Notes: generated from the letters alone by a model not told the origin. A stretch of 64,000 nt of DNA from Clostridium sp. CAG:628 (GCA_000438415.1 FR902241.1:2330-66329), one strand, 5' to 3'. Shown: positions 14,195-20,940, counted from the first letter of the stretch. Numbers and translations are program-made.

Positions 14195-14279
14195 TGGTGC
14201 GCGCGAAGGGACTTGAACCCCCATGGATTTCTCCGCTAGATCCTAAGTCTAGTGCGTCTGCCAATTTCGCCACGCGCGC
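14195..14279 (-). tRNA. tRNA-Leu (anticodon TAG), class II with long variable arm, encoded CCA
   Basis: Reverse complement gives GCGCGCG TG GCGAAATTGGCAGACGC A CTAGA-CTTAGGA-TCTAG variable arm GGGGGTTCAAGTCCCTT CGCGCGC A CCA. The 7-bp acceptor stem and anticodon loop CU-UAG-GA are clear. Confidence 0.85.
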
Positions 14280-14283
14280 GCAC

Positions 14284-14360
14284 TGGTGGACCCTGCAGGA
14301 CTCGAACCTGCGACCGCCCGGTTATGAGCCGGATGCTCTAACCAACTGAGCTAAGGGTCC
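14284..14360 (-). tRNA. tRNA with CAT anticodon (elongator Met or lysidine Ile2; sequence resembles Bacillus tRNA-Ile2 LAU)
   Basis: Reverse complement GGACCCTTAGCTCAGTTGGTTAGAGCATCCGGCTCATAACCGGGCGGTCGCAGGTTCGAGTCCTGCAGGGTCCACCA has a perfect cloverleaf with anticodon loop CU-CAU-AA. Confidence 0.85.
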
Positions 14361-14443: not shown

Positions 14444-14881
14444 TTATTTATCCTCTAATCTACTTAATAAATCAATTTTAAACATTTCTTTTTGAGCATT
14501 TGCTTTAGAAATCATAATACCCTTATAAGCAGTTAACTCAGATTTATGTCCATCCATTAAAATATCTTTTGGTTCAAGTCCAGTTAACATAACAACGTTT
14601 TGATCTTTATAAACAGTATAACTTAACTTAACTTTACCATACACTTTAACAAATAAATTATCTGTAGGTAATTGTAACTCATAATTTTCAGTTTGATCAT
14701 GTTTATTAATTCCAACTAATTCTCCTAAAAATTCACCTTTTCTTAAACTTGGATAAAAATCAAACATCAATTTCTTATAAGCCATCATGTTATATTTTTT
14801 TAAACTTCTTTCTAATTTTTTAAAATTATTTTCATCTAAATAATCTAATAAATATCTACCTTTCATTTTTTCTACCCCCAT
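14444..14881 (-). CDS. hypothetical protein (145 aa), family not recognised
   Basis: Clean ORF. Terminator hairpin GAGGATAAATAATTCCTC plus T-run at its 3' end. Confidence 0.4.
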   Translation of the reverse strand: MGVEKMKGRYLLDYLDENNFKKLERSLKKYNMMAYKKLMFDFYPSLRKGEFLGELVGINKHDQTENYELQLPTDNLFVKVYGKVKLSYTVYKDQNVVMLTGLEPKDILMDGHKSELTAYKGIMISKANAQKEMFKIDLLSRLEDK

Positions 14882-15021: not shown

Positions 15022-15222
15022 TTAACCTCTGTTAACCACTATACCTTCCTCTATCTCATTATACTTTAGTCTTTCAGTATTTATAAGTCCATTAAGTTCA
15101 ATAATTCTCTTTTTAATACCTCTAATTTCTTCTGCACTTTTTGCTCTTTTCAAACTTTTATTTAAAAGTTGCTTTTCTCTAACATACTCATTTATTTTAC
15201 TATCAATATCTCTTAAATTCAT
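15022..15222 (-). CDS. small coiled-coil hypothetical protein (66 aa) downstream of dnaI
   Basis: ORF immediately after the dnaI stop. K/E-rich and predicted helical. Confidence 0.3.
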   Translation of the reverse strand: MNLRDIDSKINEYVREKQLLNKSLKRAKSAEEIRGIKKRIIELNGLINTERLKYNEIEEGIVVNRG

Positions 15223-17419: not shown

Positions 17420-17564
17420 AATAACCACCATATGTATATTTTATATTAAAGAAGTAAATAAAACAAGTGATTTTTAACTTATTTTTTAATTAATTATAAA
17501 GTGTATTTTTATAAATACAAAAGAGAAAAATTTAATTAATTTTAAATCTTTCTCTTAAAATCAG

Positions 17565-18035
17565 TTATTTATTTAATTCATTTAACATCTTTTCTTTTAA
17601 TGTATCTATATCAGCAAAGAATAAATTAACGCCTTCTTTTTTCATGGCTAACAAAGAATTAAAATCTTCAAGTATTTTATCTTTTAAATTGTCAGCAACT
17701 CTAACTGGAGCACCATTTATAGTATGTACGTGATCTATATATTTTTCCAATGTAGGAAATGCATTTTGAAGTAAAATTACCGACTTTTTACTTGCAATCC
17801 GACCTATTAAAATAGACTTACAACTTCCATACTTTTTAATTTTTTTATCAATTATAGGCTGATATTTTTGTACCTTGCTACTTAGTGGTATAAACCATAA
17901 AATGTCATTATCACGAATAGTAAAATATGTAGGTCTTGTTTTACCATTCTCATGATTTATAATTAGTCCTTTATCATTTACAACATCAAAAAACTCGTCT
18001 TTAATATGGTAAATGTAGCCTGTTTGTACTTGCAT
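17565..18035 (-). CDS. ToxN/AbiQ-like endoribonuclease toxin (candidate type III TA toxin)
   Basis: 156 aa. ...RPTYFTIRDNDILWFIPLSSKVQKY... corresponds to the ToxN/AbiQ ...RP..G.....YYAPLSSPK.. core. Perfect AGGAGG RBS. Preceded by a repeat array and a terminator on the same strand. Confidence 0.5.
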   Translation of the reverse strand: MQVQTGYIYHIKDEFFDVVNDKGLIINHENGKTRPTYFTIRDNDILWFIPLSSKVQKYQPIIDKKIKKYGSCKSILIGRIASKKSVILLQNAFPTLEKYIDHVHTINGAPVRVADNLKDKILEDFNSLLAMKKEGVNLFFADIDTLKEKMLNELNK

Positions 18036-18064
18036 ATTATCGCCTCCTAAAATTATTTTATCAT

Positions 18065-18100
18065 AATCAAAAAGAAAACTCCATCAAATATAGGAGTTTT
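18065..18100 (-). terminator. Rho-independent terminator between the repeat array and the toxin gene (attenuating terminator typical of toxIN loci)
   Basis: Minus-strand AAAACUCC-UAUAUUUGAU-GGAGUUUU followed by CUUUUUG. Confidence 0.55.
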
Positions 18101-18102
18101 CA

Positions 18103-18208
18103 AACATTTTCAACCGAGATCATTTATAACTCGCACCACTCGGAAGCGACTAACATTTCGCGATTGGACTCATTTATAACCCGCGCCATCCATAAGCGGC
18201 AAACATTT
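18103..18208 (-). ncRNA. candidate type III antitoxin RNA: two tandem 49-50-nt direct repeats (ToxI/AntiQ-like)
   Basis: Plus-strand aacattt occurs at 18103, 18152 and 18202, so the minus strand has AAAUGUU boundaries. Each unit contains UUAUAAAUGA and a hairpin whose stem differs by compensatory changes between units (CCGC/GCGG versus UCGC/GCGA). About 50% GC in a ~26% GC genome. Confidence 0.5.
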
Positions 18209-18231
18209 ACACACTTTCTCAGTGCACCATA

Positions 18232-18260
18232 AGTATACTATATTTTTACAAAAATGTCAA
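18232..18260 (-). promoter_or_regulatory. consensus sigma-A promoter TTGACA-17-TATACT driving repeats plus toxin
   Basis: Minus-strand TTGACA (plus 18255-18260) and TATACT (plus 18232-18237) with a 17-nt spacer. Confidence 0.6.
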
Positions 18261-18321: not shown

Positions 18322-20940
18322 TTATTCATTTCGAAGAGCAGCTTGCGCAGCACTAAGCCTTGCTATTGGAACACGGTAAGGGCTACAAGAAACATAGTCT
18401 AAGCCAACATTATGACAAAACTCTACACTTGCTGGATCTCCTCCATGCTCTCCACATATTCCTAAATGTATGTTAGGATTTGCCTCCCTTCCTAAAGTAC
18501 TAGCCATCTTAACAAGTTTTCCAACACCTTTTTGGTCTAGTTTAGCAAACGGATCATTCTCATAAATCTTTTTATCATAATAGTCAGTTAAGAATTTACC
18601 TGCATCATCTCTTGAAAAACCAAATGTCATTTGAGTTAAATCATTAGTACCAAAACTGAAGAAATCTGCTTCTTTTGCTATCTCATCTGCAGTTAAGGCA
18701 GCACGTGGAATTTCTATCATTGTACCAACATGATAAATCATATCTATATTAGCATTTTTAATAATCTCGTCTGCTGTTTTAGTTACTATATTTTTAACAT
18801 ATTTTAATTCTTTAACTTCTCCAACTAAAGGTATCATTATTTCAGGAGTTATCATTTTACCAGTTCTCTTACTAACTTCAATTGCAGCTTTTATAACAGC
18901 TTTAGTTTGCATTTCAGCTATTTCAGGGAACGTAACAGCAAGACGGCAACCACGGTGTCCCATCATTGGGTTAAATTCATGAAGAGAAGCAATAATATTT
19001 TTAACTTGTTCTACACTTTTTCCTTGAGTATCAGCAAGAAGTTTAATGTCTTCTTCTGTAGTAGGCACAAATTCATGTAGTGGTGGGTCTAAGTATCTAA
19101 TTGTAACACTATATCCTTCCATTGCTTCATAAAGTGCTTCAAAGTCTTTTTGTTGCATTGGTTCAATTTTAGCCAAAGCAGATTTTCTTTCTTCTACAGT
19201 ATCAGAAACTATCATTTCTCTAATTGCAGCGATTCTATCTTTTTCAAAGAACATATGCTCTGTACGGCAAAGTCCTATTCCTTCTGCACCAAGTTCTCTT
19301 GCTTTTAATGCATCTTTTGGTGTATCAGCATTAGTTCTTACCCCAAGACGTCTATACTTATCAGCCCAAGCCATAATACGACCAAACTCTCCAGTAATAG
19401 TTGCATCTACCTTATTAATAAGTCCTTTATAAATTTTACCAGTAGAACCATCTATTGAAATTTCATCTCCTTCATGGAAAGTATAACCACCTAATGTGAA
19501 GACTTTGTTTTCTTCATCCATCACAATACTAGAGCATCCACTTACACAGCATGAGCCCATTCCACGAGCCACTACAGCAGCGTGAGAAGTCATTCCACCT
19601 CTTACAGTTAGAATTCCTTCACTCGATTTCATTCCTTCAATATCTTCAGGAGATGTTTCTAGTCTTACAAGCACTACTTTTTCTCCACTTTCATGCATTT
19701 TTTTAGCATCGTTTGCAGTAAATACAACTTTTCCACTAGCAGCCCCTGGTGATGCAGCCAAACCTTTTCCTATTTCTATAGAATTCTTTAACTCAACTGG
19801 ATCAAATGTTGGGTGAAGTAAAGTATCTAAGTTTCTTGGGTCTATCATTAAAACAGCTTCCTTATCAGTAATTTTTCCTTCATCTACTAAATCACATGCA
19901 ATTTTTAATGCAGCCCTAGCAGTTCTTTTACCATTTCTAGTTTGTAGCATATATAAATGTTTATCTTCTATAGTAAACTCCATATCTTGCATATCATGAT
20001 AATGGTTTTCTAGTTTTTCACAAATACCAACAAATTCTTCATATACTTCTGGCATTACATCTTTTAAGTGACTAATAGGTTCAGGTGTACGAACTCCCGC
20101 TACTACGTCTTCTCCTTGAGCATTCATTAAGAATTCTCCCATTAAATGTTTTTCACCAGTTGCTGGATCTCTCGTAAATGCAACACCTGTACCAGAAGTT
20201 TCTCCCATATTACCGAATGCCATCATTTGAACATTTACAGCAGTTCCCCAAGAATATGGTATGTCATTATCTCTTCTATACACATTTGCTCTTGGATTAT
20301 CCCAACTACGGAATACTGCTTTTACTGCACCCATTAATTGCTCTACTGGGTCTGTTGGGAAATCACTTCCTACTTTGCTTTTATATTCAGCTTTAAACAT
20401 ATTAGCAAGTTCTTTTAAATCTTCACTAGTTAACTCAGTATCTAGTTTAACACCTTTACTCTCCTTCATTTTATCTATTAATACTTCAAAGTATTTCTTT
20501 CCAACTTCCATTACAACATCAGAATACATTTGAATAAATCTTCTATATGAGTCCCATGCCCATCTAGCATTTCCACTTTTTTCTGCTAGAGTTTCTACAA
20601 CGCTTTCATTTAGTCCTAAATTTAGTATTGTGTCCATCATACCAGGCATACTTGCTCTTGCACCACTTCTAACACTAACTAAAAGTGGATTTGTTGTACT
20701 ACCAAAACTCTTTCCAGTAATACTTTCCAATTTTTTAATGTTTTCTAGTATTTCATTTTCTATTTCTTTACTTATAACTTCTCCATCTTCATAATATTTT
20801 GTACAAGCTTCAGTTGTTATAGTAAAACCTTGTGGAACAGGTAAACCTAGTTTAGTCATTTCTGCTAAGTTCGCACCTTTTCCTCCAAGTAAATTTTTCA
20901 TATCTTTATTTCCTTCACTAAACAAATAAACATATTTCAT
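18322..20940 (-). CDS. ppdK: pyruvate, phosphate dikinase
   Basis: 872 aa. N-terminus KYVYLFSEGNKDMKNLLGGKGANLAEM, phosphohistidine domain (TSHAAVVARGMG) and PEP-utilising C-terminal domain. Confidence 0.95.
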   Translation of the reverse strand: MKYVYLFSEGNKDMKNLLGGKGANLAEMTKLGLPVPQGFTITTEACTKYYEDGEVISKEIENEILENIKKLESITGKSFGSTTNPLLVSVRSGARASMPGMMDTILNLGLNESVVETLAEKSGNARWAWDSYRRFIQMYSDVVMEVGKKYFEVLIDKMKESKGVKLDTELTSEDLKELANMFKAEYKSKVGSDFPTDPVEQLMGAVKAVFRSWDNPRANVYRRDNDIPYSWGTAVNVQMMAFGNMGETSGTGVAFTRDPATGEKHLMGEFLMNAQGEDVVAGVRTPEPISHLKDVMPEVYEEFVGICEKLENHYHDMQDMEFTIEDKHLYMLQTRNGKRTARAALKIACDLVDEGKITDKEAVLMIDPRNLDTLLHPTFDPVELKNSIEIGKGLAASPGAASGKVVFTANDAKKMHESGEKVVLVRLETSPEDIEGMKSSEGILTVRGGMTSHAAVVARGMGSCCVSGCSSIVMDEENKVFTLGGYTFHEGDEISIDGSTGKIYKGLINKVDATITGEFGRIMAWADKYRRLGVRTNADTPKDALKARELGAEGIGLCRTEHMFFEKDRIAAIREMIVSDTVEERKSALAKIEPMQQKDFEALYEAMEGYSVTIRYLDPPLHEFVPTTEEDIKLLADTQGKSVEQVKNIIASLHEFNPMMGHRGCRLAVTFPEIAEMQTKAVIKAAIEVSKRTGKMITPEIMIPLVGEVKELKYVKNIVTKTADEIIKNANIDMIYHVGTMIEIPRAALTADEIAKEADFFSFGTNDLTQMTFGFSRDDAGKFLTDYYDKKIYENDPFAKLDQKGVGKLVKMASTLGREANPNIHLGICGEHGGDPASVEFCHNVGLDYVSCSPYRVPIARLSAAQAALRNE

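Follow-up and report, generated by a model that had tools for sequence, protein, structure and literature searches.

Type III toxin-antitoxin (TA) systems fall into three families defined by the sequence similarity of their toxins (PMC3401426). Studies of CptIN in Eubacterium rectale, R. torques and C. catus have shown that the toxin is toxic, that its cognate repeats rescue the cells, that the RNA is self-processed to a 2',3'-cyclic phosphate end and that a heterotetramer is formed; plasmid stabilization has also been shown for CptIN systems (PMC3401426, PMC4627078). In E. rectale, the complex is a heterotetramer of two proteins and two RNAs; the CptI-type RNA forms an H-type pseudoknot whose first loop is very short and whose second loop is long and rich in A, with an A-minor twist, and the active site of the toxin (CptN_Er) consists of a Ser-Ser/Thr-Arg triad together with the adenine-reading residues Asp81, Ser85 and Tyr104 (PMC4627078). 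The cloned E. rectale antitoxin sequences (CptI_Er) contain no predicted translatable open reading frame (ORF) and act as RNA, and the repeats in the 33 cptIN loci tabulated in 2012 are 40 to 48 nucleotides (nt) long, with a mean of 44.8 (PMC3401426). A survey from 2025 describes the reported toxIN and cptIN repeats as nearly identical and non-identical repeats as a tenpIN feature (PMC12283969). Here, we analyze a stretch of 64,000 nt from Clostridium sp. CAG:628 (GCA_000438415.1 FR902241.1:2330-66329; hereafter, the window), in which positions 17,565 to 18,260 very probably represent a chromosomal type III TA locus of the CptIN family in this uncultured human-gut bacterium.

Toxin family, active site and selection

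The 156-amino-acid (aa) ORF of the locus matched the NCBIfam equivalog model NF047359 ("type III toxin-antitoxin system CptIN family toxin") with an expectation value (E) of 1.2e-45 and 155 bits, compared with a cut-off of 90, in a full-length alignment (positions 1 to 150 of 150). The profile comparison with CptN that had been suggested in the initial annotation, a reading made from the sequence alone, thus gave a clear match. A sequence search of the Protein Data Bank retrieved the CptN of E. rectale (4RMO; E of 2e-17 over residues 6 to 139). The same annotation had considered the protein ToxN/AbiQ-like, a view that did not hold, as the toxin had no match to any Pfam family at E <= 1 and hence none to the ToxN/AbiQ family model (PF13958), matching the CptIN model and 4RMO instead. 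By analogy with CptN, it would be ToxN-like solely at the level of fold and active site described by Rao et al. 2015 (PMC4627078). CptIN was the sole type III model matched in NCBIfam, where, as in PADLOC, the presence of a TenpN model was not checked. Under the accession CDE99498.1, an identical protein bears the name "putative uncharacterized protein [Clostridium sp. CAG:628]"; it was seen on 91 contigs.

Residue conservation was read from an alignment of the toxin with 76 relatives and CptN_Er. Among the proposed catalytic residues, which align with the active-site region of CptN_Er, R34, Y37, S52 and K57 were invariant (77/77), while S53 was either Ser or Thr and K54 either Lys or Arg (Arg53 in CptN_Er); Ser85 of CptN_Er was mostly kept among the relatives. 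The toxin gene is under strong purifying selection, with nonsynonymous (dN) and synonymous (dS) divergences of 0.041 and 0.533 from the nearest relative (dN/dS of 0.076) and a median dN/dS of 0.09 over 19 pairs.

Organization of the locus

Toxin homologues numbered 2,640 at the protein-cluster level, and relatives were encoded on at least 353 stretches of a one-genome-per-species collection. Upstream layout, repeats, promoter and terminator were compared in detail in the best 80 of these 353, which belong to uncultured gut Bacilli, "Tenericutes" or Clostridium sp. CAG bins and encode toxins with 62 to 91% amino acid identity. In the window, the minus-strand gap of 286 nt between ppdK (stop at 18322) and the toxin ORF contains, in this order, a promoter, a leader, two repeats, a terminator and a ribosome-binding site (RBS):

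18232-18260, minus strand: sigma-70-type promoter TTGACA-17-TATACT (-35 TTGACA at 18260-18255, -10 TATACT at 18237-18232)
18209-18231, minus strand: 5' leader with a hairpin of 5 base pairs (bp), GCACU 18225-18221 / AGUGU 18215-18211, ahead of repeat 1
18159-18208, minus strand: CptI-like antitoxin repeat unit 1, 50 nt
18199-18196 / 18184-18181, minus strand: unit 1 stem 1, CCGC/GCGG
18192-18189 / 18168-18165, minus strand: unit 1 stem 2, UGGA/UCCA, with A-rich loop GUUAUAAAUGAG
18110-18158, minus strand: CptI-like antitoxin repeat unit 2, 49 nt
18149-18146 / 18134-18131, minus strand: unit 2 stem 1, UCGC/GCGA
18143-18139 / 18118-18114, minus strand: unit 2 stem 2, CCGAG/CUCGG, with A-rich loop GUUAUAAAUGAU
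18103-18109, minus strand: third copy of the AAAUGUU boundary, closing unit 2; predicted 3' processing site
18068-18101, minus strand: intrinsic terminator with a 9-bp stem (18101-18093 / 18082-18074), a 10-nt loop and CUUUUU (18073-18068)
18043-18048, minus strand: RBS AGGAGG, 7 nt 5' of the ATG
17565-18035, minus strand: cptN toxin gene, ATG at 18035, 156 aa; predicted endoribonuclease

The promoter was the top-ranked site of the region in a promoter scan and agreed with the consensus at 11 of 12 positions, and 67 of the 75 related loci carry the pattern TTGAC[AT]-N16-18-TAnnnT upstream of their first repeat. The terminator had a folding energy of -11.9 kcal/mol (z = -4.3), with none of 200 shuffled sequences as stable, and a hairpin followed by a U tract was also present in 67 of the 75 loci, with different stem sequences. 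A simple terminator scanner did not call the A/U-rich terminator stem and Tandem Repeats Finder did not call the two-copy array; both programs miss these real features because of their thresholds and not because of the sequence. The initial annotation had proposed this order on the minus strand, and every element was found at the position it gave, including the promoter, the two direct repeats bounded by AAAUGUU, the terminator (18065-18100 in that annotation), the RBS and the 156-aa ORF. The succession of promoter, repeats, terminator and toxin that it had recognized as that of a type III TA system is present both in the window and in the related loci, and since the same arrangement recurs in 75 of them, it is not due to chance.

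Small leader hairpins with different sequences are located at the same position in relatives, as judged by eye; the hairpin may stabilize the 5' end of the transcript. Right after the toxin stop codon (17521-17556, minus strand), there is an A/U-rich inverted repeat, AAGAGAAA ... TTTCTCTT, followed by TTGTATTT, which may be a weak terminator insulating dnaB_2.

Conservation of the repeats and pseudoknot structure

The motif AAATGTT starts at 18208, 18158 and 18109 (AACATTT on the plus strand at 18202, 18152 and 18103), delimiting the units of 50 and 49 nt. They are 79% identical over a core of 39 nt and 68% identical globally, and scored 53.6 (unit 1) and 78.4 bits (unit 2) with a covariance model built from the units of the clade. 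The repeats are richer in GC than their surroundings, as had been noticed, although the value was 45% rather than about 50%, against 27.2% for the whole window. Against Rfam, the locus had no match above chance level and none to a riboswitch or leader family. The covariation first seen between the two copies (CCGC/GCGG versus UCGC/GCGA) was confirmed, and covariation was likewise seen in another stem interleaved with the first (AUGGA/UCCAA versus CCGAG/CUCGG).

We aligned 107 distinct repeat units and compared the pseudoknot formed by these two interleaved stems with shuffled and slid-partner controls. The paired cells amounted to 89.4%, compared with 78.6% after shuffling (none of 500 shuffles reached the observed value) and 24 to 49% when the 3' partner was moved by 1 to 3 columns. 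Each unit consists of the stem 1 5' arm, a 2-nt loop, the stem 2 5' arm, a UGGY junction, the stem 1 3' arm, an A-rich loop of about 12 nt and the stem 2 3' arm. Stem 1 has four bp, three of them invariant (CGC/GCG) and one variable (pair 13-33, U-A in 60 units and C-G in 47, never unpaired). A fifth pair (columns 12-34) was dropped, being unpaired in 76 of the 107 units. Stem 2 has five pairs, each changing on both sides: pair 20-49 is C-G in 58 units, U-A in 48 and U-G in one, and pair 23-46 has 71 cases of A-U and 36 of G-C, with no unpaired unit at either; pairs 21-48 and 22-47 have compensatory variants as well. The pseudoknot folding of the repeats and their covariation in related genomes, both anticipated in the initial annotation, are thus borne out by compensatory changes in both stems and by a layout conserved in 75 loci, and the covariation supports an H-type pseudoknot as the probable structure of the unit. 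The most conserved parts are unpaired, namely the 5' AAUGUU, the UGG of the junction and A35, A37, A38 and A42 of the loop GUUAUAAAUGA; the adenines of the loop motif UAUAAAUG are invariant.

Each of the 75 related loci carries two units and no more; the period is 48 to 51 nt (49 to 51 nt in 73 of them), and the identity between units 1 and 2 averages 80%. Unit 1 of the window was nearer to the unit 1 of the other locus in 62 of 74 loci, and unit 2 to the unit 2 in 69 of 74. Most differences between the two units fall either in the stems, with compensation, or in the 3' tail; their single-stranded motifs are alike. Relative to the closest relative (L001), a single one of the 99 repeat nt is changed, against a toxin dS of 0.53. 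These patterns suggest that both units are functional and that the divergence of their stems might lessen mispairing between repeats or recombinational deletion.

At the first and middle boundaries, AUGUU, which is the 5' tail of a unit, is strongly conserved, while at the last boundary only GAAAAU is kept and the bases beyond it vary. This comparison supports a processing site within the A run. From the alignment to CptI_Er, cleavage is predicted within (G)A↓A↓AUGUU (arrows, possible cuts), with an ambiguity of 1 to 2 nt.

Relationship of the repeats to CptI of E. rectale

The E. rectale CptI sequence was recovered from E. rectale-type cptIN loci on metagenome contigs, where the repeat measures 45 nt and is found in two copies with a terminator behind them. 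The nucleotides numbered by Rao et al. 2015 (U4, G13, G22, U23, G24, A27, A29, U30, A31, A33, G35, G44 and A45) all fit the sequence 5'-AAGUUUACCACUGACCGAUAUGUGGUAUAUAAAUGGUCGGGUUGA-3', C6 being the single one that does not, and this fit of the numbering indicates that the E. rectale toxin cuts at UUGA↓AAGU. The covariance model of the clade found the CptI repeats at the correct position, with full-length alignments, in all 11 E. rectale-type loci searched. One E. rectale-type variant (L158 and L160) has the stem 1 CCGC/GCGG, as in the window. Together, these comparisons indicate that the repeat RNA is homologous to CptI.

Weighing of the alternative explanations

Several results weigh against the assignment to CptIN. 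A PADLOC scan of the toxin gave no match, and the AlphaFold2 model of the toxin, obtained from an alignment of 37 sequences (>= 78% identity), was too poor to use, with a predicted local distance difference test (pLDDT) score of 41. Of the three CptN_Er residues that recognize the scissile adenine, two are changed here, an invariant His taking the place of Tyr104 and a variable position that of Asp81, so the cleavage specificity may differ from that of CptN_Er. Regarding the RNA, the UGGY junction between the stem 2 5' arm and the stem 1 3' arm has 4 nt, exceeding the usual length in coaxially stacked H-type pseudoknots, and each match of the covariance model to CptI_Er was weak (13 to 19 bits, E of 0.03 to 0.95 in 91 kb, with a rough calibration). 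Nested minimum-free-energy folds of single units were no better than those of shuffled sequences (z = +0.4 and -0.1); this outcome is expected of a pseudoknot and uninformative, and it lends no independent support. Finally, phage protection has so far been demonstrated for no CptIN system (PMC4627078).

The initial annotation had proposed a divergent and possibly undescribed type III family, with a toxin distantly related to ToxN/AbiQ and a new RNA antitoxin of about 50 nt. The absence of Pfam, PADLOC and Rfam matches and the deposited name of "putative uncharacterized protein" would fit such a family, as would the length of the unit, 49 to 50 nt, which is just 1 to 2 nt above the 40 to 48 nt reported for cptIN (PMC3401426). 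Nevertheless, type III families rest on toxin similarity (PMC3401426), and the toxin scores 65 bits above the cut-off of the CptIN equivalog and matches 4RMO; the RNA can be aligned to CptI and has in common with CptI_Er its architecture and the UAUAAAUG loop motif. We give a new family hardly any credence, since the sequence evidence already refutes it. Even less credible is that the repeats are a cis-acting leader (attenuator or ligand sensor) or small-peptide genes rather than an antitoxin, in spite of a terminator located right behind them, as in an attenuator, and of a 10-codon ATG...TAA mini-ORF in each unit (MFAAYGWRGL at 18206-18174 and MLVASEWCEL at 18156-18124, minus strand). No Shine-Dalgarno sequence precedes either ATG, the peptides agree at only 4 of 10 residues, the substitutions from unit to unit are compensatory in the RNA but non-conservative in the peptide, and an insertion of 2 nt in some units shifts the reading frame, while Rfam gave no riboswitch or leader family. 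The mini-ORFs are probably incidental because their ATG and TAA lie in conserved RNA motifs, the boundary and the A-rich loop, common to CptI_Er.

The locus might also be an inactive remnant whose toxin or antitoxin has lost its function and whose arrangement is kept by inertia. Some relatives have shortened toxins (72 to 133 aa in L054, L058, L076, L072 and L036) or have lost both repeats (L045) or one of them (L042), and a residue reading the scissile adenine differs from CptN_Er. In the window, on the contrary, the ORF is of full length, and the dN/dS of 0.076 to 0.09, the invariant R34, Y37, S52 and K57 with S53 and K54 nearly so, the repeats much more conserved than synonymous sites, the compensatory changes that keep both stems, and a promoter and terminator of consensus quality all make a remnant very unlikely. 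A CptIN locus remains the reading that we favor with high confidence, and its departures from the described CptIN systems are within-family variation rather than a new kind of system.

Proposed mode of action

By analogy with the characterized systems, a strong constitutive promoter would drive the synthesis of a precursor of two tandem CptI-like repeats. The intrinsic terminator would stop most transcripts, and occasional read-through would yield the cptN mRNA, so that the RNA antitoxin would be in excess. CptN, a putative endoribonuclease with a ToxN/Kid-like fold, would cut the precursor at the A-rich boundaries ((G)A↓AAUGUU), producing RNAs of about 48 to 51 nt, each of which would take the form of an H-type pseudoknot whose single-stranded tails would bind two toxin molecules to form a closed, inactive complex. 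Once transcription stops or the RNA is degraded, free CptN would cleave cellular RNA and arrest growth. By the same analogy, the biological role might be addiction or stabilization, or phage defense.

It is also conceivable, if unlikely, that both position-conserved units are required and that the complex contains two CptN molecules and one RNA of each type, the changes at His104 and Asp81 altering the specificity; the locus would then be an ancient ppdK-adjacent module with a housekeeping-linked role in stress or stabilization and not in phage defense. Such a hetero-RNA complex would be a mode of assembly undescribed for CptIN.

Genomic context and variants among relatives

The locus is preceded by ppdK and, further upstream, a thymidine kinase gene, and followed by genes for a DnaB_2-domain replication protein and a DnaI-like ATPase. 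Among the 80 related loci, ppdK was found within 4 kb upstream in about 32, and dnaB_2 behind the locus in the closest relative only. In this relative, whose PpdK is 98% identical, an insert of 1.6 kb with three small ORFs lies between ppdK and the cptIN promoter (L001, 2182-4000), the second small ORF having an N-terminal ParB-like motif by eye; in L012, this interval is occupied by other genes. The segment from ppdK to the locus varies among relatives, and the region is therefore not strictly "core"; the neighbors named in the initial annotation (ppdK and the dnaB/dnaI genes) are correct, but the core status it had given to the region holds only in part. Within the window, tRNA-Leu(TAG) and tRNA-Met(CAT) genes are located at 14195-14360 (minus strand), the short ORFs there being translations of the tRNA genes, and two ORFs of 145 and 66 aa without a Pfam match are situated at 14444-14881 and 15022-15222 (minus strand), downstream of the DnaI-like gene.

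No relative was found in the phage collection searched. Distant CptN-like ORFs (32 to 39% identity), annotated as hypothetical, were carried by 16 plasmids, mostly of Clostridium perfringens (examples among H1 to H10 are NZ_CP075965.1 from this species and NZ_CP048628.1 from Megamonas funiformis). The 2012 survey had found cptIN on chromosomes only (PMC3401426).

Several relatives depart from the common layout. In L045 (2585-2723), both repeats are missing, with an intact-looking toxin of 154 aa and the leader and terminator kept; the end of ppdK and the leader are followed there by GAAAATGT directly joined to AGGAAAAC. L042 (about 3780-4000) has one repeat only. Either loss should upset the balance of the system; these cases may be genuine deletions or artifacts of the assembly. 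The toxin frames of 72 to 133 aa in L054, L058, L076, L072 and L036 have their repeats present and recall the short "toxins" in Blower et al. 2012. A subgroup (L010, L012 to L017, L022, L027, L030, L033, L034, L036, L038 and L053) has about 55 extra nt between terminator and toxin; the last boundary lies 125 to 138 nt from the start codon there, compared with 71 to 83 nt elsewhere. This insert, about 110 to 135 nt before the toxin start at 4001, includes a promoter-like TTGCAAAC...TATATT and an RBS, GGGGGTG, which suggests that in this subgroup the toxin may have its own promoter. Four metagenome-assembled genomes contain two paralogous cptIN loci each (L010 and L057, L015 and L063, L017 and L059, L053 and L065), with about 79% and 66% toxin identity to the window and differing repeats, e.g., by a 2-nt insertion in the junction (UGGCUAGCG). 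In L026, L041 and L043, a second pair of repeat-core matches, which may be a remnant array, is located about 195 nt upstream of the main pair (about 350 to 410 nt before the toxin).

Significance

An "uncharacterized protein" of an abundant uncultured gut bacterium is now placed in a structurally characterized TA family, and an RNA gene is annotated where Rfam had no matching family. Blower et al. 2012 described CptI sequences as not alignable within the family (PMC3401426); in this clade, both stems of a CptI-type pseudoknot are documented by clean compensatory changes, and a covariance model with which to search for CptI RNAs could start from the alignment of 107 units. This alignment also singles out targets for mutants, namely the two stems, the UGG junction, the loop with UAUAAAUG and His104. 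The understanding of how type III systems work is unchanged, the main value being the annotation and a covariation-rich CptI alignment.

Comparison with known type III systems

ToxIN (Pectobacterium atrosepticum and Bacillus thuringiensis) and AbiQ/antiQ (Lactococcus) would resemble this locus in having an array whose processing by the toxin at A-rich sites gives pseudoknots that keep the toxin inhibited within a closed complex, and in a terminator that sets the ratio; their nuclease fold and active-site logic are related (PMC4627078). However, their toxins have no detectable sequence similarity to that of the window (no Pfam match), their repeats are of 34 to 36 nt in 2.8 to 5.5 near-identical copies, and their triplex-containing pseudoknots form 3:3 heterohexamers. 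A phage-abortion phenotype has been demonstrated for them but for no CptIN system. TenpIN systems whose two repeats are non-identical also resemble the locus in the length of these repeats (about 50 nt) and in a conserved stretch of adenosines (PMC12283969), although their toxin probably belongs to a different family, CptIN being the sole type III model matched here.

The closest described system is the CptIN of E. rectale, in which, as here, a gut Firmicute chromosome carries in succession a promoter, two tandem repeats, a terminator and the gene for a toxin of about 155 aa. The toxins can be aligned over about 134 residues, with the RP.Y and PLSS(K/R)..KY motifs kept, and the RNAs have in common an H-type pseudoknot with two short stems in the same order, UAUAAAUG within a long A-rich loop, an AA(U)GUU tail at the 5' end and a GA↓AA boundary between units. 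The differences lie in the length of the unit (49 to 50 nt here and 45 nt in E. rectale, within a cptIN range of 40 to 48), the junction from stem 2 to stem 1 (4 nt, invariant UGG plus Y, versus 2 nt), the A-rich loop (about 12 versus 9 nt) and stem 1 (4 versus 5 to 6 bp). The repeats here are 68 to 79% identical, each type being positionally conserved across species, whereas the described cptIN repeats are nearly identical (PMC12283969), and the toxin has an invariant His in place of Tyr104 of CptN_Er and a variable residue at the position of Asp81. The locus is a previously unannotated member of CptIN, with modest variations in its RNA and active site.

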